Shown piece by piece: positions 2,091 to 56,800 of a stretch of 64,000 bases of DNA. Where the stretch lies: assembly GCF_030684315.1 (NCBI RefSeq), contig NC_081369.1, positions 12,748,035 to 12,812,034 of the forward strand. Reading direction: 5' to 3'. The number at the start of each line of letters is the position of its first letter. The stretch's first letter is position 1. Below the pieces are notes generated by a model, which was given only the letters and a program-made list of their open reading frames with translations, was not told the origin of the DNA and did no database searches. Both the position numbers and the translations under genes were made by a program. The stretch comes from Stegostoma tigrinum (lineage: Eukaryota).

Positions 2091-3180
2091 GCAATAAAAT
2101 ATTGGGCTAGTTAGTAACAATATAATCCTTTGAGTTATCAAATAAAAGCAGTATTCACAGATACCTGGATTACTGAGTCTATGCATATTTACCCAAACCA
2201 ATTTCTGACAGAAGTTAGGCCCAGATTAAAAATGTTAATAAAAATGGGCAGGATTGCCATGGAATTATTTCAGTAGTTTATTGGACATGGCACGTACATC
2301 CTGAAAAACAAACCCTATCCTTATGGATACTGGTCTGAGTTTTAACCTGTACCTTGCATGGGAGTTACTGTTGGGCTAATTTAATCATTCTTCTGTCTGG
2401 TTCCTGCCCAGAGACAACCCGATAAATAGGCTGGAGACCTCTAGATTAGGAACCTTGCTGCACCAGCTTGTGACCTATGAGAGCAAAAAATTATTCTAGG
2501 GGAGTCAGAGACATTGTAGTGGACTCAATTATGGAGAAAAGACGTTTCCAGTTAGCTGGGCAATTTACTGCACCCGGGCCCATAAGCAGTCCTGTCAAAG
2601 CAGTTCGACTTATCTTAAAAGGTTCAACTCTTCACCCAGACTTCTCCAAATTGAGAAAACAAATCAACAATTTTTAAACAGAATTATAGGTTAAATGAAA
2701 ACAGCGGTTTAATGTTAATGTTTAAAGAACACTCACTTTCCATGAGCAGACTAGGTTACCCATCACTGATTCAGTCTCAGATGAAGTAAGATGAGTTTAA
2801 GGGACACCAGGCTCCCACTTCACAATCTTGGGCTCAATGTCACTGGCCACTCCCATCAATGGACTTTGCACTTGCGTAATTTGGAGACACCTTTCTCCAG
2901 TAAACAATAACTAAACAAATGATAATATACAGTCTAAGGATTGCAAGAAAACCCTTATTTTTGATATTGTGCTGCCATCTAGATTTGTTTTTTGCTCTGT
3001 ATGGGAAATTGGATACATGTTACTAACTTGAACCAAAGGCTTTCAGCCAATTAGTATTTTTATATAAAGGTTTCCTTCTAAATATAGTTTCTTAGTACAA
3101 TTTTACACATTGGTGTTCTAGGCAAAATTTTAGTCCTTGATGGTTTCTTCAGATGAAGCTTATTTATCTTAACCAGTATT

Positions 3181-3375: not shown

Positions 3376-3560
3376 GAACAAAAACAGAAGTTGCCAGAAA
3401 AGCACAGTGGGTCTGGCAGCATTTTTGAAGAATGTTCTGAGTAAGGGTCACCCGACCCAAAACATTTTAACTCTGATTTTCCTTCAGATGCTGCCAGATC
3501 TGCTGAGCTTTTGCAGCAACTTCTGTTTTTGTTCTTGATTTACAGCAGCTGCAGTTATTT
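3376..3560. mobile_element. Fold-back mini-element with a degenerate central hammerhead
   Basis: Inverted arms at 3376-3422 and 3488-3534; centre CTGAGTA-AGGGTCACCCGACCC-AAAAC. Confidence 0.75.
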
Positions 3561-4227
3561 CAGGTATAATCAAATATTTGAAGCTTTGTTCAATAGAATT
3601 TTCTTATCATTTACTTGCAATCGGTCAATATTCATTTGGACCCAAACAACAATCTTTTTTGCCCATGTGCTTATGAAGTAAAGACAGCTAGAGTACACTA
3701 TGTTCTATATGGGCCAAAGGGCCTGTTTCCACATTGTAGGGAATCTAATCTAATCTTCAATTAAACTGATTTTTAATTTTAATGATGCACAGTTCCACAT
3801 TCATAACGTTTAATTCTGTAAATCTGTCCATATTTGAAACATCATTTTACATATGGATTAAAGAGGAAAAAGGTTCTTAAAAGGGATGCATTACAATTTA
3901 AAATCAATTTTGCCCCAGAAGAGAGTGGGTTTTTCTAAATTGCTGTGCATTAATACCAGACTGCTGATTGCATAAGAGATTAACAGGATAGTAAAATTAC
4001 ACCTAAGATGAGACATAACTAGCAGCTGGTCAGTGACTAATCTATTTTTGAGAAGTCATGCCCCAGAAAGGCTTTAACACAGAATATATGGACCACATCC
4101 CTCAGTAAAAGCAAGCATTAGATAATGGTCAATTCTCTACCACTGAGAGGTTGACTTAAAGCAAGTCAACCAGACTAGTCTATGAGTCTGCTCCCACGAT
4201 AAGACATTCCACTCCCGCACATCCCAG

Positions 4228-6754: not shown

Positions 6755-6891
6755 AAAACTGCAGATGCTGTAAATCAGGAACAAAAACAAAGTTGCTAGA
6801 AAAGCTCAGCAGGTCTGGCAGCATCTGTGAAGGGAAAAACAGAGTTAATGTTTCGGGTCCAGTGATCATTCCTCAGTACAATTCTGAGGAA
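6755..6891 (-). mobile_element. Mini-element of the same family as 3376-3560
   Basis: Minus-strand CTGAGGA...GGACCC-GAAAC at 6847-6876, followed by the start of an inverted arm (ctgagga at 6884-6890). Confidence 0.75.
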
Positions 6892-8004: not shown

Positions 8005-10790
8005 TCATGTGATTTGGGTGTTGTTGGCTACCAATCAGCATTTGTTGTCTGCCCCTAGTTACCTTTGAGAAGGTGGTGGCGAGCTGTATTGTTGAACTGC
8101 TGCAGTCCATGTGCTGGAAGGCAGACTCACAATGCCATTAGGGAAGGAATTCCAGGATTTTGACCCAATGACAGTGAAGGAATGATGATATATTACCAAG
8201 TCAGGGCAGTAAGTGGTTTGGAGAGGAACTTGTGGGTAGTAGCAGGCAATTCCAATGCATCTACTGTCCTTGCCCTTCTAAATGGAAGTGGTCATGGCCT
8301 TGGAAGGTGCTATGAATATCTGGCAAATTTTCACAATGCGTCTTGGAGATCGTACACAATGCTGCTATAGAATGTCAATAGTGAGGGGAGTAGATGCTCG
8401 TGGATGTGGTGCTAATTAAGCAGGCTACTTTGTACTGGATGGTGTCAAGCTTCTTGAGTGTTGTTGGAGCTGCACGCATTCAGGCAAGTGGGAAGTATTT
8501 ATCATACACACGGCTTGTGCCTCGTAGTTGGTGGACAGGCTTTGGGAGCCAGATGGTGAGTTACTTGCTGCAGGATTCCTAACTTCTGGCCTGCTCCTAC
8601 AGTCAAACTGTATTTATATGGTGAGTCTAGTTGAGTTTCTGGTCGCTGTTAACCCCCAGGATGTGGATAGTGAGGGATTCGGCGATGGTTAACACCATTA
8701 AATATCAAGGAGCCATGGTTAGATTCTCTTTCTGGGGATGGTCATTGCCTGGCATTTGTGTGGCATGAATGTTACTCGTTAGCCCTAGCCTGGATATTTT
8801 CCAGCTCTTGCTGCATTTGAACATAGGCCATACAGCATGTAAACAATACCTTCAGTCCAACCAGTCTGTGCCAAACATAATCCCAAGCTAAATTAGTCCC
8901 ACCTGCCTGCTCCTAAGCCCATATCCCTCCAAACCTTTCTTATCTATATATCCATCCAAACATCTTTTATGTTAATTGTACTGCATCTACCACTTCCTCA
9001 GGAAGTTAATTCCACATGTGAACCACCCTGTGTAAAAACATGCTCCATGTCTCTTTTAAAATCTCTCTCCTCTCACCTTAAAAACTAGTCTTGAAATTCC
9101 TCATCTTAGGGAAAAGTCAACTACTACTCTGTCTCTACCCCTCATTATTTCATAAACTTCTATCAGATCACCTGTCAACCTCCTACAGTCAAAAGAAGTC
9201 CCAGCCTATCCAGTCTTTCTTTACATCTCAAACCTTCCACATCCAGCAACATCCTGGTAAATCTCAAGTCCTCTCCAGCCTGATAATATCCTTCCCATAA
9301 CCAGATGACCAGAACTGGACACAGTATTCCAAGACAAGGCCTCACCAGTGTCCTGTACAACCTCAACATAACGTCCCAACTCCTATAGTCAAAGGACTGA
9401 GCAATGAAGGCAAGTGTGCCAAACATCTTTTTAACCAAGCTGTCCATATGTGACGCAAACTTCAAAGAATTATGTACCTGCACTCCTAGGTCCCTCTTCT
9501 ACAACACTACCTAAGGGCCCACCATTCATTGTATAAACACTACCCTTGTTTGTGGTCGCATTTATCCAGAATGAGGTCCAGCTGCCATTTTTCAGCCCAC
9601 TGAGCTAATTGATCAAGATCCCTTTGTAATCTAAGAAAACCTTCTTCATTGCCTACAATGCCACCAATTTTGGTGTCAACTGCAAACTTACTAACCATGC
9701 CTTCTATATTTTCATTCAAATCATTTATAAATGACAAACAAAGAGTACCCAGAACTGATCCGTGGAACACCGCTGGTCACAGGCTTCCAGTCCGAAAAGC
9801 AACTCTCCACCATTACACCGTCACCTGCTGGTAAGCCAATTGTGCATCCAATTGGCAAGTTCACCCTGAATCCCATGTGACTTAACTTTACTAATTAACC
9901 TTGTCAAAGGCTTTACTAAAATCCAAATAAACAAAGTCTATTGCTCTGCCATCATCAACCTTTTTTAAAAAGTTTGACAAACACCATTTTCCTCACTCAA
10001 AATCATGCTATCCCTAATTAATTTTTTGCCTTTTTAATTGTCCATAAATCCTACCTTTTATAATCACCTCCAACAATTTACCCATAACTGAAGTCAGACT
10101 GAACAGGTCTAAAGTTCCCCAGTCTTTCCTTATAAGCTTTAAAGGTACAAGATTAGCCACCCTCCAGTCATCAGCACCTCACCCACAGTTATAGCTGATG
10201 AATGAACTGCTTCAGTAGCTGCTGAGTTGCAAATGATGCTGGACATTGCATAATCATTGGCAAATAACAATACTTCTGACCTTATGACAGAGAGAAAATC
10301 ATTGATCATGGTTGGGCCTAGGACATTACCCTGAGGAACTCATGTAGAGATGTCCTGAAGCCAAGAAGACTGACATCCAATAACCACAGCCTTCTTCCTG
10401 TGTGCTAAGCATAACTCCAGCTACAGAGTTTGTCATCATTGTCAATGGGAATATTTGTGCAGCCATCTCTTCTACTGAGTTGTTTGCTTGTCCACCACCA
10501 TTCAAGATTGATATGGCAGGACTGCACTGCTTAGATCCCATCCATTGCTGCGAGATCACTTAGCTGTCTAACACTTGTTTAACAAGTTTAACACACAGTC
10601 TGGTAGGTTCACCACATGAACACCTCATTTTTAGGTATGCCTGGCACTGCTCCTTGCATACCCTCCTGCACTCTTCATGTAACCAGGGTTCATCTTGTGA
10701 TTTGATCACAATGGTTGACTGGGAGATGCTCTACAACCTCATAGCCTGGCATATGTTGGGAGTATAATTCTGCTGTTGATAGCAATATTT
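8005..10790 (-). mobile_element. LINE (8005-8820 and 10200-10790) split by a CR1 copy (8825-10195)
   Basis: ORFs 9175-9483 and 9540-9770 show GSVLG..FIND..SKFAVDTK and DVMLRLYRTLVRP. The left flanking piece is a reverse complement of the 43270-44545 family. Confidence 0.8.
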
Positions 10791-11497: not shown

Positions 11498-12935
11498 GAG
11501 TCACAGATATACAGCACAGAAACAGACCCTTTGTTCCAACTCATTCATGCTGAGGTTTCCCAAACTAAACTAAACTAATCCCATGTGCCTGCATTTGGCC
11601 TAATCCCTCTAAACATTTCCTATTCATCAACTTGTCCAAATGCCCTTTAAATATTGTAACTGTACCTGGATTTACCATTTCCTCTGGCAGTTCATTCCAC
11701 AGACAAACCAATCAATCCACAAACCACCCTCAGGTCCCTTTTAAAAATTTTTAAGATGAAAGGAGAAAGAATGTCCTCTCGTCTTGAAACTGCCCACCCT
11801 TGGGAAAAGACCTTTGCTATTCACCCTATTTATATCTCTCAACATGGTAAACCACTATAAAGGTCAGCCCTCAACCTCCCACGCTTCAATGAAAGAAGTC
11901 CCAGCCAATCCAGCCTCCTCTGATAGCTCAAATCCTCCATTCCTGGCAAAATCCAGGTAAATCTTTTCAGAAGCCTCTGCAACTTAATCATTGCAGGGCA
12001 ACCAGAACTGTACACACTACTCTAAAAGTGATCTTACCAAACTCCTGTACAACCTTAAAATGACATCCCAACTCCTGTACTCAATGGTCTGACAATGAAG
12101 GCAAGCATGTTAAACACCTTCTTAAGCACCCTATCTATCTGTGATGCAACTTGCAAAGAATCAGGTACCTGAACCCCTGGGACACACTGTTCTACAACAG
12201 TACCCAGGGTCCTACCATTAACTGTACAAACCCTGCCCTTGTTTGTTTTACCAAAATACAGTAACCTCATTTATTCAAATTAAACTCCATCTGGCACTCC
12301 TCAAACCACAGACTCAACAGATCAAGATTTCTTTGTAATCTTAGATAAGCTTCTTCCCTGTCCACTATACCACCCATTTTGGTCCCATCCACAAACCTAC
12401 TAACCATGCCTTCTGAATTCTCATCCATATCATTTATATAAATGACAAACAAAACTGGACCCACTGCCGAATGCTGCAGAACACCGTTGGTCACAGGACT
12501 CCAGTCTGAGAACCAACCCTCCATCACCACCCCGTCTACTACTGTCAAACCAATTTTGCATCCAATTGGCAAGCTGTCCCACTTGATTTAACTCTACTAA
12601 TTAGTGTACCGTGCAGAACCTTCTCAAAGGCTTTACTAAACATGTAGATAACATCTACCACTTTGTCCTCAATCTTTTTGACTAAGTCCTCAAAAAAATG
12701 TAATCAAGTTTGTATGATATGATTTCCCATACACAAAGTCATGCTGACAATCTCCAATCAGTTCTTGCCTTTCCAAATGCATGTAGATCCTCTCTCGGGA
12801 TCCCCTGCAACAACTTAGCCACCACTGACATCAGAATCAGTCTGTAGTTTCCTGGCTTCTCCTTACAGCCTTTCTTAAATAAAGGCACAATATTAGCCAC
12901 CAACCCTCTTTAGTCCTCTGGCACCTCCCCTATGG
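11498..12935 (-). mobile_element. CR1 LINE 3' part
   Basis: ORFs 12267-12572 (GPVLFVIYINDMD..SRFVDGTK..QMEFNLNK) and 12055-12270. Confidence 0.85.
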
Positions 12936-19560: not shown

Positions 19561-20371
19561 CTGCAAAAAAATTAGGTGTAACTGAATGCAAGTTTCAATA
19601 AAATAGCAATAATCATGAGAATTAGTAATAAGTTCCAAGGATTTTCTGAATCTCATTAAACGCTTTTCTGAAATCTTATAAACACTCAATAAGCATGAAA
19701 TTCCTTATTTCAAGAATGTAAAAAATAAAAATGAAATGAATTAGTACAGTGAAAGATATGCCTCTTTTCATCACAATACAGCACAAATCCAAAGCAATAA
19801 TAGCCCATTCACAAAGCAGGGAAATTTGAAGTTCGATAAAATTGATACACTACTTGCCGTCAGTATCTTACTACAAGGATCACTCCCCAGCATTCAGTTC
19901 CTACTATTCAATTTCACTTTACCTCGGATAAATTTTACTGGTCCAAAGTATTCGGGAGAGATAATTCTATGAATGAGCAAATATTACACACGACCCGAAA
20001 CTGGATACTTAGCACCTGCTTTTTAAGCACGTTACCTCAGCACTTCAAACAGATGCCTAAATAGGGAGGAATCATGCAAGCATTCATATTAGCGCAGGTG
20101 ACAGTGGTGTGCAGTTACCAGCTTTGACACTTCGGAGCTCAAACTTTCACAGCTGGACATGGGGTCAGCAGCAGAAGAGTCCTTTCAAAAACATCTTTTC
20201 CAAGGAATCAACTACTTACAGATTAGTTACTGGCCAGCACCATCTAGTTATTGTTACAATTTTAGAAGTGCTTTGTATCATTGATTCCAATGGTACAATT
20301 TCATAGGGACCCATGCGGCAGTACTGATGGATTATTTTTCTACTTTAAGGCTTCTGCACAAAAAAAGAGGC

Positions 20372-20526
20372 GCAAAGTACTGGAAAAGCTCAGCAAATCT
20401 GGCAGCATCTGTAGGGAAACAAACAGTTAACGCTGAGTCCAGTTCTGATAAAGGTTCATCAGACTCACTGTTAACTCTGCTTTTCTCTCCACAAATGCTG
20501 CCATGTCTGCTGAGTTTCTCTAGCAT
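20372..20526. mobile_element. Older fold-back mini-element
   Basis: Arms tggaaaagctcagcaaatctggcagcat and atgctgccatgtctgctgagtttctcta, with a central degenerate CTGATAA. Confidence 0.7.
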
Positions 20527-22385
20527 TATTTTCATTGTAGTCAGAATTGCTCTAATGAGGATATCCCTTTTCTGCCCAAGACATTGGGTTGCTCCATAGA
20601 TCATTAATGAATCCATGCAAGAAGGGGTGTCATCTCAGTCCATCACCCTCCATTCTGATGAATACTTAGTTGGTTTCATGTAGTGTGCTAGGAGCACAGA
20701 AATCAAGCATAAAGCCAAATTACCTTCTGTACCTTTTGATTCAAAAGTATTATCAATAGAGTGTAGGGGAAGCTGATGCCATGGAAAAAACTGTTAGGTT
20801 GTAGACATCAAATTACAAAACATTTCAATACCAACAACTTTAGAAAGTCATGCATTCTTCAGAATGCAAGGGGCTCTGAAAAGAAGTAGCCCAAAAGGTT
20901 GTGCAAACATGGAAGGAGGACCTAACTACAATGATTCATCACAATGTAAATAATAAGTTATAAACCAGTTAATAGGACAAATGTGTTAATGATATATACT
21001 ATATTTTGTGCTACACTAAGTGTTAAATATGCTATAAGTTTACAATTCAACTGCATTCATCCTCATACTACTTTTTAATACAATGGCTACAGTACTTTTG
21101 CCCAGTTGAGCTAGTTAACTCAGAGTTGGGAAACAAAATCTCAAATTAAGCATAGCTTAGGTACACTGACTTAAACATTTCTAAAAAATGGGCCAATGCT
21201 AATGGGAGAAGTCACTTAAAAGGTCTTTTTCTTTGTACTGGAAGCATTAGCCAAGTTCAAAATTAAGAGCCCCTAACAAGGTTATGACAATGTTTGAAAA
21301 AAATCAAAGCCCTCAGCAATTACCCAACATTCATCACTACACAATACTTTAAATAAAAGCATTTTTTTCTTTTCAAAAAGACAAAAGCAAACTTCAAACT
21401 AACCAAAACTAATGCTATAAATTCTGCTCTACACTTTATTCTCATCCCCTCCCTACCACTTCGTTGAATTGAGAAAGGATTCTTCATCTTACAAAATCCC
21501 AAAGGCACATTAATTCTTGTTAGGACCAACTCAAAAGATATGCCACAGCCCTCTAAAATTAACTTCAATGCTCCTTAGTGTCCTCCTAATCTCTGAGGTA
21601 AGATTCTATGGGGGTCCTTGCATTATTTTATTTTCATTTCACTTTTTTTTTGTTTGGAACTGACAGTCAAAGTCAAGAATTGAACTTTGAACAGCAGCTT
21701 GTTTTGGAAAAGAGTGCGCAAGTGAATTTGTTTGTTATGGAAATTGCCCTTGAAAGATAGTATAATAATTAAACTGTGATTAAGAACATGATAGGTGTTC
21801 CAGTAACAAGATGTTTTAGGCTTAGGACTGGTAACTGGTTGCATGTTGAACTGATCAAAGGATGATCAGTGCAGGCTGGCAAGGCACAATGCTGCTTAAA
21901 GAGGGGGCAAAAAGTGAAACATTCTGACTAGGGTTCTGAAGCAAAACCATGGTGCTCCTGGATTTTGCACTGATTTTCACTGCAGTTGTCAACTTCTTAG
22001 TTGTTCCACAAAGAATACAGACCTCTGTAATAAGTGGATAAGTAATCATAGAAAGTTACTGAATCTGTTTGCATGAATCAGTGACTTTGGAATTCAATTG
22101 ACATGTCTTTTATAACTCCATTAACTAAGGATTTCTGAAGGCCTGGTACCAATCAAATCTGTTGAACTGGCAAATAACAATTGGTTTTAATTTATCTCTA
22201 ACTGTGTCAACATGGAAGTGCGTTTCTAGCTAAAGGAGACTGCCTTATTGCTTATCCATGCCCTGCCACAGTTATATTATTAATAAATTGTTAATTCATG
22301 TTCCAAATTTGACTGTTATTCTTAAAGTCCAGTTAAGGACAATTGAGCAATTTTGAGAGTCACTGAATATTTTAAATTTTTATCA

Positions 22386-25303: not shown

Positions 25304-26028
25304 TAGGAAGGAAAGTATGCTGTGTAAATGATATAACAAGGATGCAAAGTGATATAAATAAGTTGACAGACAACACAAGAAAATCTGGCAGATGTGACAG
25401 GACGTGAAGTTGTTCACTTTGGTAGTAAGAAGAATAGAACAGTATTATTTAAAAGCAGTTCTGCTACAGAATTCTAAGGTACTGAGGGGATCAAGTTTTC
25501 TAGTGCACGAGTCACAAACAACATTCAGTATAGCAAGTGATTAAGGTGGTTAATGTAATGCTTTTTTAAAAACAAAAGAAATTGAACACAGAAGCAAGGA
25601 TAACAGTGTGGAGCTGGATGAACACAGCAGGCCAAGCAGCATCTCAGGAGCACAAAATCTGACGTTTTGGGCCTAGGCCCTTCAGAGAGGGGGATGGGAA
25701 GAGGGGTCTGAAATAAATAGGGAGAGAGGGGGAGACGAACCGAAGATGGAGAGGAAAGAAGATAGGTGGAGAGGAGAGTATAGGTGGGGAGGTAGGGAGG
25801 GGATAGGTCAGTCCAGGGAAGACGGACAGGTCAAGGAGGCTGGATAAGGTTAGTAGGTAGGAAATGGAGATGCGGCTTGAGGTGGGAGGAGGGGATAGGT
25901 GAGAGGAAGAACAGGTTAGGGAGGCAGGAATGAGCTGGTCTGGTTTTGGGATGCAGTGGGGGGAGGGGACGAGCTGGGTTGGTTTTGGGATGCAGTGGGG
26001 GGAGGGGACGAGCTGGGCTGGTTTTGGG

Positions 26029-28354
26029 AACCCAGACCCCTGCCGAATCTTCACCATCCCCCCCCAGACCTCCCACTGACCGAGGACGAACCGTCAGTCC
26101 TAAGCAAGGGGCTCACCTTTGTCCCCCTCCACCTGCACATCAACGAATACCAGTCACGTTTGGACATCAAGCAGTTTTTCCGCTGCCTTCGCCTCCACGC
26201 TTACTTCTTTAACCGGGAGCCTAACCCTCCCTCCACTGACCCCTTCACCCGCCTCCAATGCAAGTCCTCCTCCTGGACACCACCCCCGGGCCTCCTACCC
26301 TCCCTCAACCATCTCCAACTGCCGTCGAGACATCAACTGCCTCAACCTCTCCACCCCTCTCTCCCACTCCAACCTCTCCCCCGCAGAACGGACAGCCCTC
26401 CGCTCCAACCCCAACCTCACCATCAAACGCGCAGACAAGGGAGGCGCAGTGGTAGTATGGCGCACTGACCTCTACATCGCCGAGGCCAAACACCAACTCT
26501 CCAACACCACCTCCTATCGCCCCCTTGATCATGTCCGCACCTCCGAGCGCCAAACCATCATCTCCAATACCATCCATGACCTCATCACCTTAGGGGACCT
26601 CCCACCCACAGCCTCCAACCTTATTGTTCCCCTACCCTGCATGGCCCGTTTCTATCTCCTTCCCAAAATCCACAAAGCCGCCTGCCCTGGTCGACTTATC
26701 GTCTCAGCCTGCTCTTGCCCCTCCGAACTCATCTCCACCTATCTGGGCTCAATTTTCTCTCCCTTGGTCCACGAACTCCCCACCTACCAAACGCCACCTC
26801 TTCCTCCGTAAATAGATGACTGTATCGGCGTCGCCTCTTGCTCCCCAGAGCAGCTCAAACAGTCCATCCACTTCACCAACACGTTCCATCCCAACCTCAC
26901 GCCCTCCACCTCCTCCAGAACTTCCAATTCCCTGGCCCCCAACACCTCATTTTCACCATGGACGTCCAGTCCCTATACACCTGTATTCCTCATGCAGATG
27001 GCCTCAAGGCCCTCCGCTTCTTCCTGTCCCGCATGCCTGACCAGTCACCCTCCACTGACACCCTCATCTGCCTAGCCAAACACGTCCTCACCCTCAACAG
27101 CTTCTCTTTTGCTTCCTCCCACTTCCTACAGACAAAGGGGGTGGCCGTGGGTACCCGCATGGGCCCAAGCAATGCCTGCCTCTTTGTAGGTTACGTGGAA
27201 CAGTCGCTCTTCCGCACCTACACAGTCCCCAAACGCCAGCTCTTCCTCCGTTACATTGATGACTGTATTGGCGCCGCCTCTTGCTCCCCAGAGCAGCTCA
27301 AACAGTTCATCCACTTCACCAACACCTTTCACCCCAACCTTCAGTTCACCTGGGCCATCTCTAACACATCCCTCACCTTCCTGGACACCTCAGTTTCCAT
27401 CTCAGGTAACCAGCTAGAAACTGACGTCCGTTTCAAGCCCAACAACTCCCACAGCTACCTGGAATACACCTCCTCCCACCCACCCTCCTGCAAAAATTCC
27501 ATCCCTTATTCCCAATTCCTTCACATCCACTGCATCTGCTCCCAGAATGAGGCATTGCACTCCCGCACATCCCAGATGTCCATGTTCTTCAAGGACTGCA
27601 ACTTTCCCCCCACAGTGGTCGAGAACACCCTTGACCGCGTCTCCCGCAACATATCCCTCACACCCCGCCCCCGTAACAACCGCCCGAAGAGGATTCCCCT
27701 CGTCCTCACATACCACCCCACCAACCTCCAGATACAACGCATCATCCTCCGACACTTCCGCCATCTACAATCCGACCCCACCACCCAAGACATTTTTCCA
27801 TCCCCACCCTTGTCTGCCTTCCGGAGAGACCACTCTCAGTGACTCCCTTGTCCACTCCACACTCCCCTCCAATCCCACCACACCCGGCACCTTCCCCTGC
27901 AACCGCAGGAAGTGCTAACTTGCCCCCACATCGTCTCCCTCACTCCCCTCCCAGGCCCCAAGATGACTTCCATATTAAGCAGATGTTCACCTGCTCATCT
28001 GCCAATGTGGTATACTGTATCCACTGTACCCAGTGTGGCTTCCTCTACATTGGGGAAACCAAGTGGAGGCTCAGGGACCGCTTTGCAGAACACCTCCACA
28101 AGGTTTGCAATAAACAAATGCACCTCCCAGTCGCGAACCATTTTAACTCCCCCTCCCATTCTTTAGATGACATGTCCATCATGGGCCTCCTGCAGTGCCA
28201 CAATGATGCCACCCGAAGGTTGCAGGAACAGCAACTCATATTCCACTTGGGAACCCTGCAGTCCAATGGTATCAATGTGGGCTTCACAAGCTTCAAAATC
28301 TCCACTTCGCCCAGTGCATCCCAAAACCAGCCCAGCTTGTCCCCGCCTCCCTAA
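26029..28354 (+). pseudogene. Disrupted PLE RT/GIY-YIG ORF
   Basis: Overlapping ORFs 25956-26468, 26119-26811, 26838-27842 and 27839-28354 join into one polyprotein through several frameshifts. Confidence 0.9.
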
Positions 28355-28569
28355 CCTGTTCTTCCTCTCACCTATCCCCTCCTCCCACCTCAAGCCGCAC
28401 CTCCATTTCCTACCTGCTAACCTCATCCCGCCTCCTTGACCTGTCAGTCTTCCCTGGACTGACCTATCCCCTCCCTACCTCCCCACCACCTCTCTCCTTT
28501 TCTCTCCATCTTCGGTCTGCCTCCCCCTCTCTCCCTATTTATTCCAGAACCCTCTCCCCCGCCCCTTCT

Positions 28570-28597
28570 CTGACGGAGGGTCTAGGCCCGAAACGTC
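28570..28597 (+). ncRNA. Hammerhead motif, one core substitution (CTGACGG)
   Basis: CTGACGG-AGGGTCTAGGCCC-GAAAC-GTC. Confidence 0.6.
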
Positions 28598-28784
28598 AGC
28601 TTTTGTGCGCCTGTGATGCTGCTTGGCCTGCTGTGTTCATCCAGCTCTACACTTCGATATCTTGGATTCTCCAGCATCTGCAGTTCCCATTATCACAGAA
28701 GCAAGGATGATATATTCACGTTATACAGGACATTGCCAAGACCACAGCAATGACCACAACAATTGCTGAGGCCACCGCAATTTA

Positions 28785-31364: not shown

Positions 31365-32360
31365 TAGAGTCAAAGAGCGTGGAAACAGACCTTTGGTCCA
31401 ACTTGTTCATGCTGATCAAGTTTCCTAAACTAAACTAGTCCCATTTGCCTGCGTTTGGTACATATCCCTTCTGACCTTTCCAATTCATTAACTTATCCAA
31501 ATGTCTTTTAAATGTTGTAACTTCACCTGCATCTACCACTTCCTCTGGCAGTTCATTCCACATACGAACCACCCCCTGCATAAAGTTGCTCTTCAGGTCC
31601 CTTTTTAAAAATCATTCTCCTCTCACCTTAAAAATCTGTCCCCTAGTTTTGAATTCTATCCTAGGGGAAACCCTTGCCATTTACCTTACCTACGCCCCTC
31701 ATTGCTGTAAACATCTATAAAAGGTTACCCCTCAACTTCCTACGCTCCGGTCAAGGAAGTCTAAGCCAATCCGGCCTCTCCTTATAACTCAAATCCAGTC
31801 CCGGTAACATCTTTGCAAATCTTCTCTGCACATTGTCTAATTTAATAATATCCTTGGTATAGCAGAAATGGACAAAGTACTCCAAAAGTGGCCTCCCCAA
31901 CAGCCTCCACAACCAAAACATAACACCTGTACTCCTATACTCAATGATCTGAGCAATGGAGGCAAGCATGCCAAGTCTTTTTTACCACCCTATCGACACA
32001 ACTTTCAACAAACCTGAAATACCTGAACCCCTACATCTTTTTGATAACACCCCCCGGAGCCTACCATTAACTGTACAAGTCCTGCCTTATTCGTCTTACC
32101 AAGTGTTCATCTAAATTAATCTAATCAAGTTCCCTTGAAAATCTTAGATAATCTCTACATTGCCGACTATACAGCCAATTTTGGTGTCATCACAAACTTA
32201 CTGATCAAATTTCCTATGTTCTCAGCTGAATCATTTTTGTAAGTAACAAACAAGTAGACCCAGCACAGATCCTTGCAAACACTGCTGGTCACAGACCTCC
32301 AGTCCGAAAAACAACCCTCGCCCTCTGTCTACCACTGTCAAGCTAATTTTGTATCCAATC
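31365..32360 (-). mobile_element. CR1 LINE 3' part
   Basis: ORF 31751-31969 contains IEYRSTGVMFWLWRLLGRPLLEY; the tail matches 11498-11750. Confidence 0.85.
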
Positions 32361-35805: not shown

Positions 35806-36654
35806 GTAGCAGTAATTCATACTCTGGACAGCCACCAGCACAATCATGTCAAGTGTACCTAGAGCTGGGGCCTCATGAATGTGCTTTTCCTGACCTCTAG
35901 CTCACATGCAATGAACGCAACGTTTCTGCCATTTGTCGTCTTCATCATTGATTTTCCACAGACGTGAACGTGAATTTGCACACCACACACTCCTGCGCAC
36001 TACGAATCCTATGTCCTTACAACCTTCTCCTTTACTTTCACAGCTTACAGGTGCTCATACCCATGGGGAAGACCAGATTCTGTGGTTCCTGCTTCCTTGC
36101 TTCAACTAAGGATCCATCATTATACTGACTACAATCACATAATAATACTCTTCTCCGTGTGGTGTGACTCTGCTCTAGAGTAAATTCCAGATATGCTATA
36201 TGCTTAGCAGTCTTTTTAAACTTGTACTTCATTTTAGTGATTCAGAACTGGAGTGACTCGAGAGTTATTTCCTCTGAAGTATCCATCTGGGACACTGACT
36301 GCAGATTCGAACATTTACTCACAAAAATTATTCTATTTTGTAATATGAGAGCAAAGAGGCACAGAAGTAGGAAAGGTTACTCCAGCTCATGTTCTGACAT
36401 AAGATTTGATCAGATAGATTCAGTTAGGATTTCTTTTAGACTACTTTATGGTTCAGTTAATTGAGTACAAAACAAAAATTGAGTAAGGTAATAATTTCAG
36501 GGTCCTGGTTATTTATTTTGTTCAAAATTTAAATCAAAATGGACAAGTGTTAAAGGAAGAATAAATACTCTTCTGGCTTTCTTAATTTGCTTAGCTGTAC
36601 CTACCCCGGCATTAAAATTTCCACATACCACATTCTTGTTTAAAAATTGGAAAG

Positions 36655-36795
36655 AGGATTTGCATTTATGTAGCACATTGTGCAATCTCAGGATAGCTCA
36701 GAAAAATTTCACAGCCAATGAAATACTTCTGAAACACAGCCATTGTTGAAATACAAGAAATGCCAATTTTTTCATAGCAAGCTTCACAAATAGCA
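36655..36795 (-). mobile_element. Ancient SINE fragment (DeuSINE-like by recall); related copies at about 14140-14330 and 40885-41050
   Basis: ttgcatttatgtagcac...cacagccaatgaaatacttctgaa is the reverse complement of the ttggctgtaaaactttggaacatc segment near 41006-41029. Confidence 0.45.
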
Positions 36796-36831
36796 ATACT
36801 GCAGAAGTGCTGGTATAGGGCTGGGGTGGAC

Positions 36832-37006
36832 AAAGTCGTAAGTCACATGATACCAGGGTGTAGTCCAACAGGTTTATTTGATATCAACCTTTTGGAGTCC
36901 TGCTCCTTCATCAGATGACTTCATCTGAAGAAGCAGTGCTTTGAAAGCTTGAGATTTCAAATAAACCTGTTGGGCTACAACCTGGTGTCGTGCGACTTCT
37001 GACTTT
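36832..37006. mobile_element. Palindromic 175-bp element with back-to-back hammerhead motifs (second family)
   Basis: Arms aaagtc...aacaggtttatttga and tcaaataaacctgtt...gacttt. Plus strand CTGAAGA-AGCAGTGCTTT-GAAA-GCTT (36925-36950); minus strand CTGATGA-AGGAGCAGGACTCC-AAAA-GGTT (36886-36914). Confidence 0.8.
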
Positions 37007-38399
37007 AAACAGCAACATGACAAGAACGCAATATATTTTTTCAATAGAGGGATAAGTACCGGCCAAGTCACTGGGAACAACTTTCCGGATGGGACACAAG
37101 AATGAAAAAGAGCGAAGCTGTATGCATTTAGCATATAAGCAAAAACATTATTTTTGGAGCCTGAAAAAAAGGGGGCTTTTTTTGCTAGCTTGACTTACTG
37201 CATTTTATGTTAATTGTTTCAATTTGCTGATAGAGGTTATGGAATGTTGCTATTAAAAGCAAGTTCACACTGATTTTGGAATGAAACTTGTTCAAATTTA
37301 AACACAACAGTGCCAACAGAAGACACCACACATCAGGGTTTCACTTCTCTGACATATGCCTTTCTGAAATAAACAGAAAATGCTGGCAATACTCTTCTCC
37401 AAGTCATACATTAGCTGCAAGCAGCACAGGAGTGTTACAGTTTGCCTTAAACTGTGTGCCTTCAAAGGACAATGCAATATTAACATTGGAAATGAAAAAA
37501 TATTTGGTGAAATCTTTGATGTGACATTCACACTTCAATCATGTCTTTTATCTATGCTATATACATGCTTTCTGCTAGTGAAATACAAGATGTAGGCAGA
37601 TGCGTTCTAGGAAAACAGCTAAAGTTCCAGGACTTGTCCCCTTCAGAACAACATTCTATTTGTCCATAATGAAACCGCAAGTAATAATGGTAACATTATA
37701 ATTCTCAAAGGAAAGTGAAGGAACTCACATCAAGAATACTTTACAATAGCTCTCAATGTTGTTGAAACTGTTACAATCTAACATTTAGTAAAAGGTTTTA
37801 TGAATATTGTCATTATTCTAGACTATTCTAATTACCTTCAAACAATTAACATGTGGACAACAAAAGGAAGATCAATAATCACAGCATAATCAATATAAGG
37901 ACTTTTTTTGCTGGAGCACACCGGGAACAAAATACAGTCAGTTGCATACTACCTACTGACACCTGAGGTAACTGCAAACTCAATTTAGCCTATCACCTGA
38001 AGTTTCTCATCAGTTTCCTCTCAATCAAAATTTCTCTACTTAATTAGCTGGAGAAAGTGTTTGGGCAAGAGTTTTGCTTCTATACAGAAAATTTGTCAAG
38101 ACTTTTGTGCAAGAAAATCCCTTTTAAGAAAAGGAAAGCTATATTTTGCTGGACTCAAGCTACAGGTCAGCTGACCTGCACTTCTGTCCTCATGACTTCC
38201 TGTACACCGTGGTCAGCCTCCAACTGCCTGCACAGTTGCCAGCTGTCAGTAAATTTTCCATACAATACCTTAATGTCTATACAGACTACTGTTCAGATTA
38301 TTCAGTCCATTTATCTCAATCTTTCTCTAACATCACACCTCCATCACATCAGTCCAATTTTATTCAAGTTATAAGAATCAGTTTAGCTTGAAAGAGGAC

Positions 38400-40715: not shown

Positions 40716-40808
40716 AGATAGTAGGAACCGCCTGTGCTGGAGTCTGAGATAACCAGCTGTGGAGTTGGATGAGCACAGCCGGCCAGGCAGCAGAGGAGCA
40801 GGAAAGCT
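40716..40808 (-). mobile_element. About 90-bp PLE 3'-end insertion
   Basis: Matches the pLTR tail. 15-bp TSD aagctaaatatgcag at 40701-40715 and 40804-40818. Confidence 0.88.
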
Positions 40809-42279
40809 AAATATGCAGTTCCATTGTTTAACCAAAAGACTTTATAGCTGGACAAGAGAGCTTGTAAATTATTCAAAATTAACAGGAAGTCCTCAGCATG
40901 CCAGACACCATTTATCCTTGAATTACTGACTGTTTTTGTGAGACTTTGCTCCGTGCAAAGAGTCTGCCATATTTCCCAACTAAGTTCACTTCCAATAACA
41001 GTCTATTGGCTGTAAAACTTTGGAACATCATTAGAATTTATTAGATTGCTTCACTATTAACAAGATTACATTTTATAGTGTTTCAGGAGATCTTATCACC
41101 ATCGCTACATGGCCTAACAGCCAGAGACGTACAACTGTAATAAGGTCAGGTATGGCAACAGGCAGAACTGAGGTAGCTTTTATTTAATAACACGAGAGAC
41201 AGACTGCACATTGTTGAAAAAGGTCTCAAATGATGAATGCCTGCTTGAAGAGGGACTGGAAGGGTATTGTCACTTGTGGGACTGTAGCCTCTACAGGCAC
41301 TGTACATTTTTCAACAATGTGCAGTCTCTCTCATTTGTGTTATTAAATAAAAGCCACCCAAGATCTGCCTATTTGCATACCCAAATTCATTATTATTGTA
41401 TATGTCTGGCTCTTATGCCATATTTGACCTCCCATATTGTAGGTGTATTGGAACAGTTTGATTAAGGGCACAGCTGGAATAGTCCTCAGTATAGAAAGAA
41501 AGAAACAGGATGTTGTCACGTCCCACAACCTCTTCCGTAACAAAATAAAGAGTGCCTGAGGAACTCAGCAGGTCTGGCAACATCTCTGAACAAAGCTATG
41601 TTTCAAATTCAATTCCACTCTTCAGAATTCAGATTTCCAACATACACAGTGTCTTTGTTTTTGATGTATTTTTACTTTCTGGTAACATGTTCTTTCAGCC
41701 GTTTTCTCTGTATCACGGAGGGAATCAAACCAGCTAAAATCAGACATCTGCAATGCTGGGGACTCGGGTGGAGATGGTTCAACCCACTTGGCATTTCAAG
41801 CTGAAGAGGATTCCAAATGTTTCAGCTCTTTCTTTTGCAGTAAGATGCTAGGCTCAACCCCTCATTATCATTTACAGCTGGATTTGACAGTTGATATGGG
41901 AATCATTCCACTGCATCTATCATGTGCTGCTTCACTGTTCATCATGGATGTATTTCTGCTGTAACTGCACCAGGTCAGCACTTCTTTATTGGCAAGCCAG
42001 GTGCTGCTCCTAGCATACTCTCCTACTTGTTGAATCAGAGATACTTTCTTGGTTTAATGGTAATTACAGAGGGAAAAGATATGCTGGGTCCTGAAATTAA
42101 AGGCTATGGTTGAATAAGATCTGCAGTAGATGGCCTACAATACCCCACAGATACTCAGTTTTGAGTTCCTCGATGTGTTCTAAATTTTGATCCATTTAGC
42201 ACAATGGCACAGGGCCCACAGTGTGATGCTAGGACTTTGTTTCCAAGAAAGACTCTGAGGAGAGTAGGGTGCATCTGTG

Positions 42280-43269: not shown

Positions 43270-44545
43270 AAAGGCAGGAGATCATGTTGCGTGGCACTAT
43301 TAACCATGCTAAGTGGGAGAGACTTCGACAGATCTAGCAACTCAAGACTATGCAATGAGGCACCTCGAGCCATCAATAGCAGAACTGTATTCCAACACAA
43401 TCTGCAACCCAATCGTTACAATCAAGCCATGATATCAACCCTATATTGTTTAATGGAGAATGCAGGGAGGCATACCAGGAGCAATATATCTAAAAACAAG
43501 GTACAACCTGGTGAAGCTACAAAATGGGACTACTTGAGTGCCAACTAGCATTAGCAGCAAGTGACAGACACAGCAAAGCGACCAATGGATCACATCTAGT
43601 CATTTCAGTTCCAGAACATCTTTGCAGGAATTCCTCAGGGTAGTGTCCTAAGCCCAACTATCTTCAAATGCTTCATTCATGAAAATCAGAGGTGGGGATG
43701 TTTGCTGAAGATTGACAACTTCTCAGATGCTGAAGCAGTCCATATTCAAACAAGATATGGCTAATATCCAGGATTGAGCTGACAAGTGGCAAGTAAGAAT
43801 TGCTCCACACAAATACCAGCTAATGACCATCTCCGATAGGAGACAACCTAACCACTGCCCCTTGATATTCAATGGTATTACCACTGAATTCCCCACTATC
43901 AACATCTTCAGGGCTACCAATGACCAGAAACTCAACTGGGCTCACCATATAAATATAGTGGTAACAACAGCAGGTCAGAGACCAGGAATACTGCAGCAAA
44001 TAACTCACCTCCTGACTCCCCAAAGCCTGTCCACTATCCAAAAAGCACATTCAGGAGTGTGAAGGAACACTCCCCAATTTCCTGGATGAGTGCTGCTCCA
44101 ACAAGTTAAGAAGCTTGACACCATCCAGGACAAAGCAGCCAGCTTGATTAGTGAAATATCCACAAGCATCCATTCCCTTTAACACCGACACTCAGTAGCA
44201 ACAATGTATGCTATTAGTGAATTTCTGCAGTGCATCTGATAGAATATCCTTAGATAAGACCTTTCTAACCCATGAGCACTTCATCTAGAAGAATGGAGGC
44301 TGCAGATAAATGGGAACATCAAGTTTCTCTGAAAGCTACTTACCATCCCAATCTGGTATTATATTGCCATTCCTTCACTATTGCTGGGTGAAAATCCTGG
44401 AATTCCCTACCTAATGGCATTATGGGTCAACCTACAGCATATGGCCTGCAGTTGTTCAAGAAGGTAGCTCTCTAACAGCACCTCAAGGACAGCTAGGGGC
44501 AGGCAATGATTGCTAGCCAGCTAGCGACACCCATGTTCCACGAAT
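43270..44545 (+). mobile_element. LINE fragment (RT C-terminal half plus tail)
   Basis: GIPQGSVLSPTIFKCF and MFAED motifs, plus ORF 43823-44062. Confidence 0.8.
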
Positions 44546-47838: not shown

Positions 47839-48928
47839 TGTTATGATCCAAGATGATATTACCTCAAACTATAATCCTGGATAAGACCATTATATTTACT
47901 GGTCATTAACGAGATCAAATTTCAGAATTGTTAACTCCTGGACTTCAAACTTTAAGTTTTTAAAAACAAAATAAACTTCACTTTAGAGATAATGGGAACT
48001 GCAGATGCTGGCGAATCCGAGATAACAAAGCGTGGAGCTGAATGAACACAGCAGGTCAAGCAGCATCTTAGGAGCACAAAAGCTGACGTTTTGGGCCTAG
48101 ATCCTTCTTCAGAAAGGTCTAGGCCCGAAATGTCAGCTTTTGTGCTCCTACGATGCTGCTTGGCCTGCTGTGTTCATCCAGCTCCACGCTTTGTTATCTA
48201 TAAACTTCACTTTACAAAGTTTAAGTAGAAACAATGCATCCCCTATAATAGCACAACTTGTATTCCAACATCCAGAATTAACATGAACTAACAAACTTTG
48301 GTTGAAGCCTTCACAAGAGCATTTCAAAACAACAGACATGGTTAGGATAGATCTCAGATTTCTTAGCAATAAACCCTGAGATTAGTAACAATGAGTCACC
48401 AAAAATCATTAAAACTTTGCCTTCTTAACAAACGATAGTAAATCTTCATGTTTGATGAGGTAGCCTCAGAGCTTCCTCAAAATCATTCTGACCCAAAATG
48501 CTACAGTAACCCGGTAGTTGAATCCCTCCTTCAATGACAAAATTTTCTAGGATTTCCCACAAGTATTTAATGACTGATACAATTCCAACTTTTTAACCAA
48601 GTAACTAGCTTCACCAAGCCACTGCGGCTTATAGTGTTATTTTAAATTTGTCTAGTAAGCAGCTCTTTAGTAGAGCTGCTGTGCAACTCCATTGAACTGT
48701 TAAGAGCTCTGATGTTAACGTGCACTTTGCCACCTGACAGCAGCACTTTAATAGTCTGGAGACCCTTGCCTGCCTCTCACTAGCTCACTGACTAAAAGTG
48801 ACTGACTCTTGAACTCATCTAGGTGACTTATCAAAAACCTTCCAACCCCTACTACTGAGCAAGGGAGCAACAAAGATTGTGTAGCTTAAACATTAGAATC
48901 TTCACAGGTGCCAGAATTCATCAAAACA
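47839..48928. mobile_element. Possible solo LTR hosting the 47986 mini-element
   Basis: TGTTATGAT...ATCAAAACA termini; flanks agtt/agct would be a 4-bp TSD with one mismatch. Confidence 0.35.
47986..48199. mobile_element. Fold-back PLE-derived mini-element with hammerhead motifs
   Basis: About 85-bp near-perfect inverted arms. Perfect 15-bp TSD ataaacttcacttta at 47971-47985 and 48200-48214. Confidence 0.92.
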
Positions 48929-56577: not shown

Positions 56578-56800
56578 AAGATAGCAAGGTGTAGAGCTGG
56601 ATGAACACAGCAGGCCAAGCGGCTTCAGAGGAGCAGGAAGGCTGACGTTTCAAGCCGAGACCATTCTTCAGAAAGCTTTTCAGATAAGATTTTCTGAAGG
56701 GTCTAGGCCCGAAATGTCAGCCTTCTTGCTCTGTTCATCCAGCTCTACACTTTGTTATCTCAGATTCTCCAGCATCTGCAGTTCCTCAACTACTACCTCC
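56578..56800. mobile_element. Fold-back PLE-derived mini-element with hammerhead motifs on both strands
   Basis: Inverted arms. Minus-strand CTGAAGA-ATGGTCTCGGCTT-GAAAC-GTC at 56644-56671; degenerate plus-strand motif from 56694. Degenerate TSD tcaacattccattt / tcagcatttcattt. Confidence 0.85.

Follow-up and report, generated by a model that had tools for sequence, protein, structure and literature searches.

The fold-back element at 36797-37006 of the window (the whole stretch of 64,000 nucleotides of Stegostoma tigrinum contig NC_081369.1 that was analysed) is most probably a decayed 210-bp pair of pLTR arms placed head to head, which one Penelope-like retroelement (PLE) probably left behind in a single insertion and which is probably inert; we put the probability of this reading at about 0.88. 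The features of PLE insertions that it displays are a hammerhead pLTR family, a one-sided tail of 30-40 nt, an inverted head-to-head copy and a target-site duplication whose length varies between inserts, and in these terms it is an ordinary fossil of a known PLE insertion type. The link of its family to PLEs rests on anatomy and motif, with no ORF joined to the pLTR.

The true ends were taken from contigs of the family, and a flanking duplication lies at the ends thus placed without regard to it. The original prediction had described a 175-bp inverted repeat, and a palindrome is indeed found at 36832-37006 (gapped self-alignment over the whole 175 bp, E 9e-32; ungapped arm match of 36832-36885 with 36953-37006), but the element as a whole extends to 210 bp, a 35-nt tail on the left and a 9-bp target-site duplication having been missed. 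The two plus-strand copies of the duplication lie at 36788-36796 (AAATAGCAA) and 37007-37015 (AAACAGCAA), with one mismatch at 36791, where contigs of two related organisms (two of X9, one of X5) have C, as in the right copy. A match of at least 8 of 9 letters at 21 left positions has a chance of 0.0045 (0.45% of 20,000 random trials). The tail occupies 36797-36831 on the minus strand and continues the left arm. In all four contig runs, family contigs leaving the window behind 37003-37006 continue as the reverse complement of 36797-36831, so that the left arm carries a 35-nt family extension absent from the right arm. Symmetric inverted ends abutting the duplication are absent, as the tail separates the left duplication from the left arm. 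On sequence grounds, the one-sided tail and the duplication together mark what is apparently a PLE integration product.

The inverted, tail-bearing pLTR arm (36832-36918, minus strand) has its inner end 4 nt upstream of the hammerhead C3, and the direct arm without tail (36918-37006, plus strand) has its inner end 7 nt upstream (-4 and -7 from C3). They meet in a head-to-head junction at 36918-36920, with a 1-nt arm overlap at 36918 and a 2-nt loop, as read from the sequence against the family letters upstream, which were taken from loose ends before 36926. AATAAA, resembling a polyadenylation signal and perhaps acting as one, stands downstream of the minus core (36873-36878, minus strand) and of the plus core (36960-36965, plus strand). 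Of 84 sites aligned between the two arms, 15 are substituted (10 transitions), a divergence of about 18%, and the arms have deletions of 3 and 2 nt as well. No tandem repeat was found at the locus, and nhmmer found no further copy of the element in the window.

Hammerhead-type cores appear to be present on both strands, and in this copy both are damaged. The boxes had been predicted correctly as CTGATGA on the minus strand at 36914-36908 and CTGAAGA on the plus strand at 36925-36931, as had GAAAGCTT at 36943-36950 and its minus counterpart AAAA-GGTT. Because the two boxes are one sequence mirrored, they are not independent evidence. Only the minus copy had been thought mutated. The minus core (36883-36918), a decayed minimal type I hammerhead, is indeed damaged: its CUGAUGA box is intact, with G12 changed to A, 2 nt lost from helix I, and a helix III of GG that is no longer palindromic. 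The plus core (36921-36954), of the same decayed type, is broken too, being 3 nt short of the family in or next to the CUGANGA box, with helix I mismatched and stem II altered; GAAAGCUU is intact. Given this 3-nt loss, the plus core cannot hold an intact CUGANGA box and an intact stem II together. Contigs align best with the loss inside the box, the apparent CUGAAGA then being a composite with a G-to-A change at 36931 (G in 82% of the depth of X3 contigs); the alternative is a broken stem II. Neither core has all of an intact CUGANGA box, GAAA, G10.1-C11.1, a palindromic helix III and helix I. As for the helix III palindrome AAGCTT, which had been contrasted with ACGT in another family, the comparable part is AGCT, its outer A and T being core positions. 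One arm with a 3-nt loss in or next to the CUGANGA box was seen in three fold-backs (36925-36931, 56694-56701 and 25678-25685), which may reflect slippage between GA repeats.

The identity of the target cores as hammerheads, probable as we consider it, rests on the majority sequence of the family. This was read from the X5 loose end behind 36886 (23 records, agreement 0.74) from the loose ends before 36926 and from the majority letters, and runs UCAC, CUGACGA, A, stem II GGAGC/GCUCC, GAAA, GC, U, U, GUGA, followed by AAUAAA. It is an intact minimal type I hammerhead with helices I-III that fits the published PLE consensus, and it has both the CUGANGA and the GAAA boxes, whose lack from a consensus had been named beforehand as evidence against hammerheads. 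The Rfam hammerhead models, proposed as a check, gave no hit, whether over the window (E up to 1) or over 301 bases (E up to 10). A covariance model trained on 10 cores from the window's remaining families detected 13 sites at E 1.2e-4 or below, its 10 training cores among them; it scored the plus core at 10.4 bits (E 5.3, noise level), and the minus core was not among its 37 hits. In those 10 decayed cores of other families, none of the 7 pairs had a change on both sides.

The predicted fold is rod-like, as had been supposed (z -10.5, with 0 of 200 shuffles as stable), and the plus CUGA is unpaired in the full fold with a probability of 0.02 or less. Since the arms lie head to head, a transcript from either side would make the antisense copy before the sense core. 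Folding of growing prefixes, which is an equilibrium calculation and not a kinetic simulation, pairs CUGA upstream with the antisense copy, with P 0.98-0.99 on the plus strand (from 14 nt on) and 0.75-0.98 on the minus strand.

Contigs of four runs from three organisms (those of X3 possibly from the window's own source) were aligned to 36600-37200 at 80% identity or more, giving 11,593, 10,788, 1,230 and 1,171 aligned records. Nearly all depth falls within 36789-37019; it does not measure copy number and was not read in that way, nor were contigs of X5 and X14 taken as evidence of expression. By these alignments, the arms belong to an abundant, high-copy repeat family, in which many contigs consist of one arm that has its loose end at the hammerhead. 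The left flank running into the element was found in contigs of two related organisms, X9 and X5, differing at 13 of 270 and at 19 of 258 bases. The right end is covered by an X9 contig that extends 28 letters into the element, short of the 31 that the bridging rule requires. As the same insertion is found at the matching locus in related organisms, it predates the split of those organisms; the flanks have diverged by 5-7%, and the insertion is kept in three organisms.

Minority letters common to both arms were found at 36860/36978, where 91-92% of X3 depth differs, and at 36915/36924 (81% at 36915), and these two variants, present in both arms, point to one source. Among the 12 joints listed (68 in all), 10 replace 53-79 letters of the centre by 3-39 others, making up nine distinct joints, and one listed joint retains only the outer 16 nt of the inverted arm; joints whose intervening letters are not known were left uncounted, as they may be alignment breaks at the target copy's own damage. 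In seven further contigs, the length across the centre is within -2 to +7 nt of that in the target copy.

The arms had been called unrelated to the other pLTR families of the window, and in all four comparisons 21-80 of 300 shuffles indeed score as high. Nor was an autonomous partner found in the window, again as predicted, nhmmer and tblastn revealing no further copy or partner ORF there. The target family is distinct from the main pLTR family of the window, and a PLE partner is the right thing to seek. A pattern for the arms had no match in the metagenome and viral contigs searched. No report on Penelope-type Neptune elements of sharks was found in the open-licence papers searched.

The window, which is animal DNA rich in retroelements, contains seven fold-back PLE inserts, the shortest about 190 bp and the longest 3.1 kb, along with several solo ends. 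Their best duplications are 9-17 bp long (9 bp at the target, 10-17 bp at its sister inserts), with a chance control for the target's only. A clear one-sided tail is found in five of the seven. The exceptions are the insert at 20.4 kb, which is too decayed, and the one at 34.1 kb, whose inverted arm stops near C3 and not at a tail-less end. Both CUGA starts are retained in two of the five short palindromes (the target and the one at 56.6 kb) and one start in the other three, and the position of the centre differs among the five. The four short palindromes other than the target (47988-48199, 56578-56800, 3376-3569 and 20362-20569) belong to two other pLTR families and have their centres at differing places relative to the hammerhead. 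At 25600-28693 lies a 3.1-kb fold-back PLE with an inverted 430-bp 3' end, broken RT/GIY-YIG frames and a Neptune-type linker; with its tailed pLTR and exact 13-bp duplication, it is a long version of the target layout. The closest relatives of its RT frame (26820-27842) come from whale shark (82% identity) and zebra shark (85%); together with its neighbours, the frame gives weak RVT_1 and GIY-YIG matches below the Pfam cut-offs. The same frames, which represent the window's first pLTR family, contain a C-x4-C-x2-C linker, a type given as a Neptune-type mark in PMC8557442.

Several other features of the window were noted in passing. A solo family-1 insert at 40716-40803 has a 15-bp duplication, and its 5' end coincides with the predicted cleavage site (+28 from C3) or lies no more than 5 nt from it; it may be a copy of a cleaved RNA, in this one case only. 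At 6760-6889, a solo family-3 insert has as its end a mirror image, 7 nt long, of the CUGAGGA box that it carries, and amounts to a minimal fold-back. The 313-bp imperfect inverted repeat at 41109-41421 had no hammerhead hit with the in-window model, and no duplication was found around it. A U7 snRNA-like match at 48632-48683 (29.9 bits against a gathering score of 34, E 0.018) is possibly a pseudogene. Older dispersed repeats of about 68-70% identity lie at 8885-9920, 11519-12640 and 31382-32359, and at 8025-8763 with 43805-44519.

A pattern for the hammerhead subtype, which fixed only the first stem II pair, gave 104 matches at 99 metagenome loci and none in viral contigs. Stem II has at least 4 pairs in 77 of the 104 matches, and both stems are present in 69, many being copies of few families. 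In 16 representatives, 91 of 96 positions were paired, where shuffles gave 49 on average and at most 63, with several pair types per position, a score inflated by the picking of the representatives by hand from rows with stem II. The target has no blastn similarity to the 99 loci at E 0.01, and they therefore test the motif type and not the target family. Searching the loci for PLE RT with 40 of 120 proteins as queries gave hits at 10 of them, with the motif downstream on the same strand in 9 (L038 and L039 being one contig). At L021 the motif is inverted at the 5' side of the PLE RT, and L038 has the order hammerhead-RT-GIY-YIG-hammerhead, without the CX2-5CxxC linker. An inverted upstream copy was found at 8 loci among the 88 matches tested. 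L066 and L057 are head-to-head units with exact duplications of 13 and 12 bp and one longer (tailed) end. L014 has two same-sense hammerheads 154 bp apart (2808-3005), a retrozyme-like dimer of a PLE end.

Published PLE units have much the same anatomy. The typical unit has an inverted 5'-truncated copy by its 5' end and a 30-40-bp tail at one end (PMC8557442), and rotifer inverted pLTRs have been described with 8-10-bp duplications and with head-to-head joints explained by self-priming (PMC3846280). Like the EN+ PLE units of PMC3846280, PMC8557442 and PMC2377424, the target has a head-to-head inverted 5'-truncated copy and a one-sided tail, and its 9-bp duplication compares with 8-10 bp in the rotifer cases; unlike the units described there, its arms are cut down to the hammerhead-bearing end, with no ORF left. 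The target family shares with the minimal type I PLE hammerheads of PMC4209133 a U-rich lead, a short helix I, CUGANGA with an extra A, G10.1-C11.1, a two-base palindromic helix III and an AU-rich exit. The turtle entry of that paper also shares the ending GAAAGCUU...AAUAAA / GCUU...AAUAAA, while the words 'shark' and 'Callorhinchus' do not occur in one of its supplements. Opposite-strand pairs of minimal hammerheads have already been reported at distances of 100-700 bp (PMC4209133), whereas the target cores are 10 nt apart and both decayed.

The insertion may have proceeded as follows. The PLE protein would make staggered nicks that give rise to the duplication, and two cDNAs would be primed at two internal start sites about 35 nt apart, producing the tail end and the tail-less end. 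After only about 90-120 nt, each cDNA would reach the 5' end of its template, an uncleaved RNA that starts shortly before the hammerhead; head-to-head joining of both cDNA ends would leave one core on each strand. Two cDNAs joined at the centre resemble the twin priming of L1. The joints found among the family contigs would fit two cDNAs begun at the outer ends and joined at the centre. Against a fully random centre stand the seven contigs that bridge it at near-constant length, as an amplified palindromic unit also would. Two observations in the window speak against the model, namely the inverted arm of the insert at 34.1 kb, which stops near C3, and the insert at 6.8 kb with only a 7-nt mirror. 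The junctions are equally compatible with a two-primer route and with a self-primed fold-back of one cDNA. Within the proposed mechanism we lean slightly towards two primers; self-priming, which PMC3846280 favours for head-to-head joints, keeps a substantial minority share, and other routes a small one.

The outer ends may be compared with the start sites of a lizard enzyme. The PLE protein of this lizard cuts and extends both strands from two internal starts bounding the tail; it needs RNA up to nt 172 of the ORF, and hammerhead cleavage is dispensable (PMC11167929). This element, a Poseidon of Anolis carolinensis, has its tail delimited by two RT start sites, and its hammerhead lies at a distance from the tail end similar to that in the target; it differs in coming from another host and probably another family and in resting on in vitro data, and head-to-head products are not described in the sections of PMC11167929 compared here. 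By arithmetic from the same source (111-118 nt into an ORF starting at stem II), the lizard RT start lies at about +119 to +126 from C3. The outer ends are at +81 and +117 in the target, +92/93 and +124/125 in family 1, +97-99 and +123-132 in family 3, +85/+113 in L066 and +99/+121 in L057. Those of the target and family 1 lie close to the lizard RT start, although the clade of the target family may differ from Poseidon.

The inner ends of short inserts lie near C3 in other families as well. In family 1, all five short arms match only 0-5 nt upstream of C3, and TATTTA starts at -34/-35 in four of the five long copies. Among the 28 matches of the largest metagenome family, 8 end at -12, 5 at -11 (3 distinct loci) and 3 closer, while 4 end at -16 to -39, 6 run past -64 (reference included) and 2 are cut by contig ends; in this family TATAAAAA starts at -43, 31 nt before -12. 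A TATA box about 30 nt before the transcript start has the textbook spacing. In two unrelated families, family 1 and the largest metagenome family, the inner ends of short inserts thus cluster some 30 nt past a TATA-like box; this pattern, noted post hoc, suggests run-off cDNAs of uncleaved pLTR transcripts. Run-off at the start of an RNA that begins shortly before the hammerhead is the simplest reading, and would account for cores lying back to back. A splice junction is argued against, as the sequences upstream of the -12 ends are not common to the copies. The odds are slightly in favour of the inner ends being a transcript start rather than a stop of the reverse transcriptase at the ribozyme. 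More broadly, solo and palindromic PLE inserts of stub size could form a distinct class, made as run-off cDNAs from short uncleaved transcripts that begin about 30 nt behind a TATA box of the pLTR, with a dimer of the protein priming both strands from two sites; we hold this only tentatively, at somewhat less than even odds.

In the window, 8 of 11 or 8 of 14 inner ends, depending on the count, are clustered; the binomial test of this clustering is post hoc and biased by the way in which inserts were found, and was not relied on. Judged by eye, four of the five metagenome families have no sharp cluster of ends near C3. In the PLE family of L021, L001, L049, L065, L072, L074, L084, L089 and L094, short copies end sharply at -11/-12, 31 nt behind TATAAAAA. 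Three copies of another family (L053, L080 and L087) end at about -60 by eye, perhaps a family-specific start. Drosophila Penelope has a TATA-less internal promoter with the downstream element RGACGTGY (PMC2377424), and RGACGTGY is also present in the largest metagenome family, at about -34. A run-off model for short PLE inserts was not found in the open-licence papers searched.

Amplification of the palindrome itself, as a non-autonomous hairpin element transcribed and re-mobilised as a unit by a PLE enzyme, would agree with the great abundance of the family, with the seven other contigs that bridge the centre within -2 to +7 nt, and with the finding that pLTRs suffice in cis to move other sequence in the rotifer (PMC3846280). 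We consider it improbable, given the nine distinct shorter centres among the joints listed, the varying centre of the five short palindromes in the window, and the need of the lizard enzyme for RNA to nt 172 of the ORF, a region beyond the tail end that the stubs are without; an inner-end cluster at one site also predicts similar centres without amplification of a unit. The original prediction had likened the ambisense layout to viroid-like RNAs; read as an RNA replicon, viroid-like or retrozyme-like, the element would have one working ribozyme per polarity. Such a functional layout is not supported, as both cores are damaged and predicted to be sequestered by the antisense copy. Minimal PLE hammerheads moreover needed in vitro a same-sense partner, which is absent on one strand here: a single Schistosoma motif did not cleave, and dimers cleaved at a low level (PMC4209133). 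The target does share a rod-like predicted fold and a CUGANGA-like hammerhead box per strand with the Avsunviroidae and ambisense viroid-like RNAs, where avsunviroids provide the precedent of hammerheads in both polarities (PMC12382478), but unlike these it is a chromosomal DNA insertion whose cores are damaged mirror copies of one motif, its duplication and tail point to endonuclease-led integration, and the insertion is old and common to related organisms. Without a tandem same-sense copy at the target, no unit-length RNA could be released; non-LTR retrozymes, which are likewise non-coding, PLE-derived and equipped with a type I hammerhead, are same-sense tandem arrays, while the target is a single inverted pair (bioRxiv 10.64898/2026.07.22.740005). 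The replicon reading has next to no chance of being right.

Transposon termini with target-site duplications had been named in advance as evidence against a hammerhead element. A duplication is present; the ends are asymmetric. A DNA-transposon MITE with terminal inverted repeats and ribozyme boxes by chance is accordingly a very unlikely account of this short inverted-repeat element, even with its 9-bp duplication and with neither core scoring in Rfam or the in-window model: the 35-nt tail makes the ends unequal, the majority sequence of the family forms a complete minimal hammerhead, helices I-III included, the sister duplications of 10-17 bp have no one fixed length, and single arms whose loose ends fall at the hammerhead are frequent among the family contigs. 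That an old insertion was exapted as a host hairpin, a source of microRNA or endogenous siRNA, is hardly credible either. The hairpin is stable, is kept in three organisms and has weak matches to microRNA models, but these are far below threshold (37 bits against a gathering score of 139.7) and of a kind that any long inverted repeat gives; its arms have drifted 18% apart with two deletions, and persistence across a flank divergence of 5-7% needs no selection.

Together, these observations speak for a decayed PLE insertion, and they are a caution for searches of animal data, in which PLE fold-backs abound, that take hammerheads in both polarities with a rod-like fold for the mark of a viroid. 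The origin of the inverted ends and tails of PLEs and the role of their ribozyme are current mechanistic questions (PMC8557442, PMC11167929). If the inner ends are transcript starts, genomes hold a large dataset on run-off synthesis, two-site priming and template cleavage by the hammerhead. If stubs form the proposed class of run-off products, thousands of them would chart, for every PLE family, where the RNA begins, where the RT has its two starts and how far apart the nicks lie, and they would reveal a template whose ribozyme mostly stays uncut.
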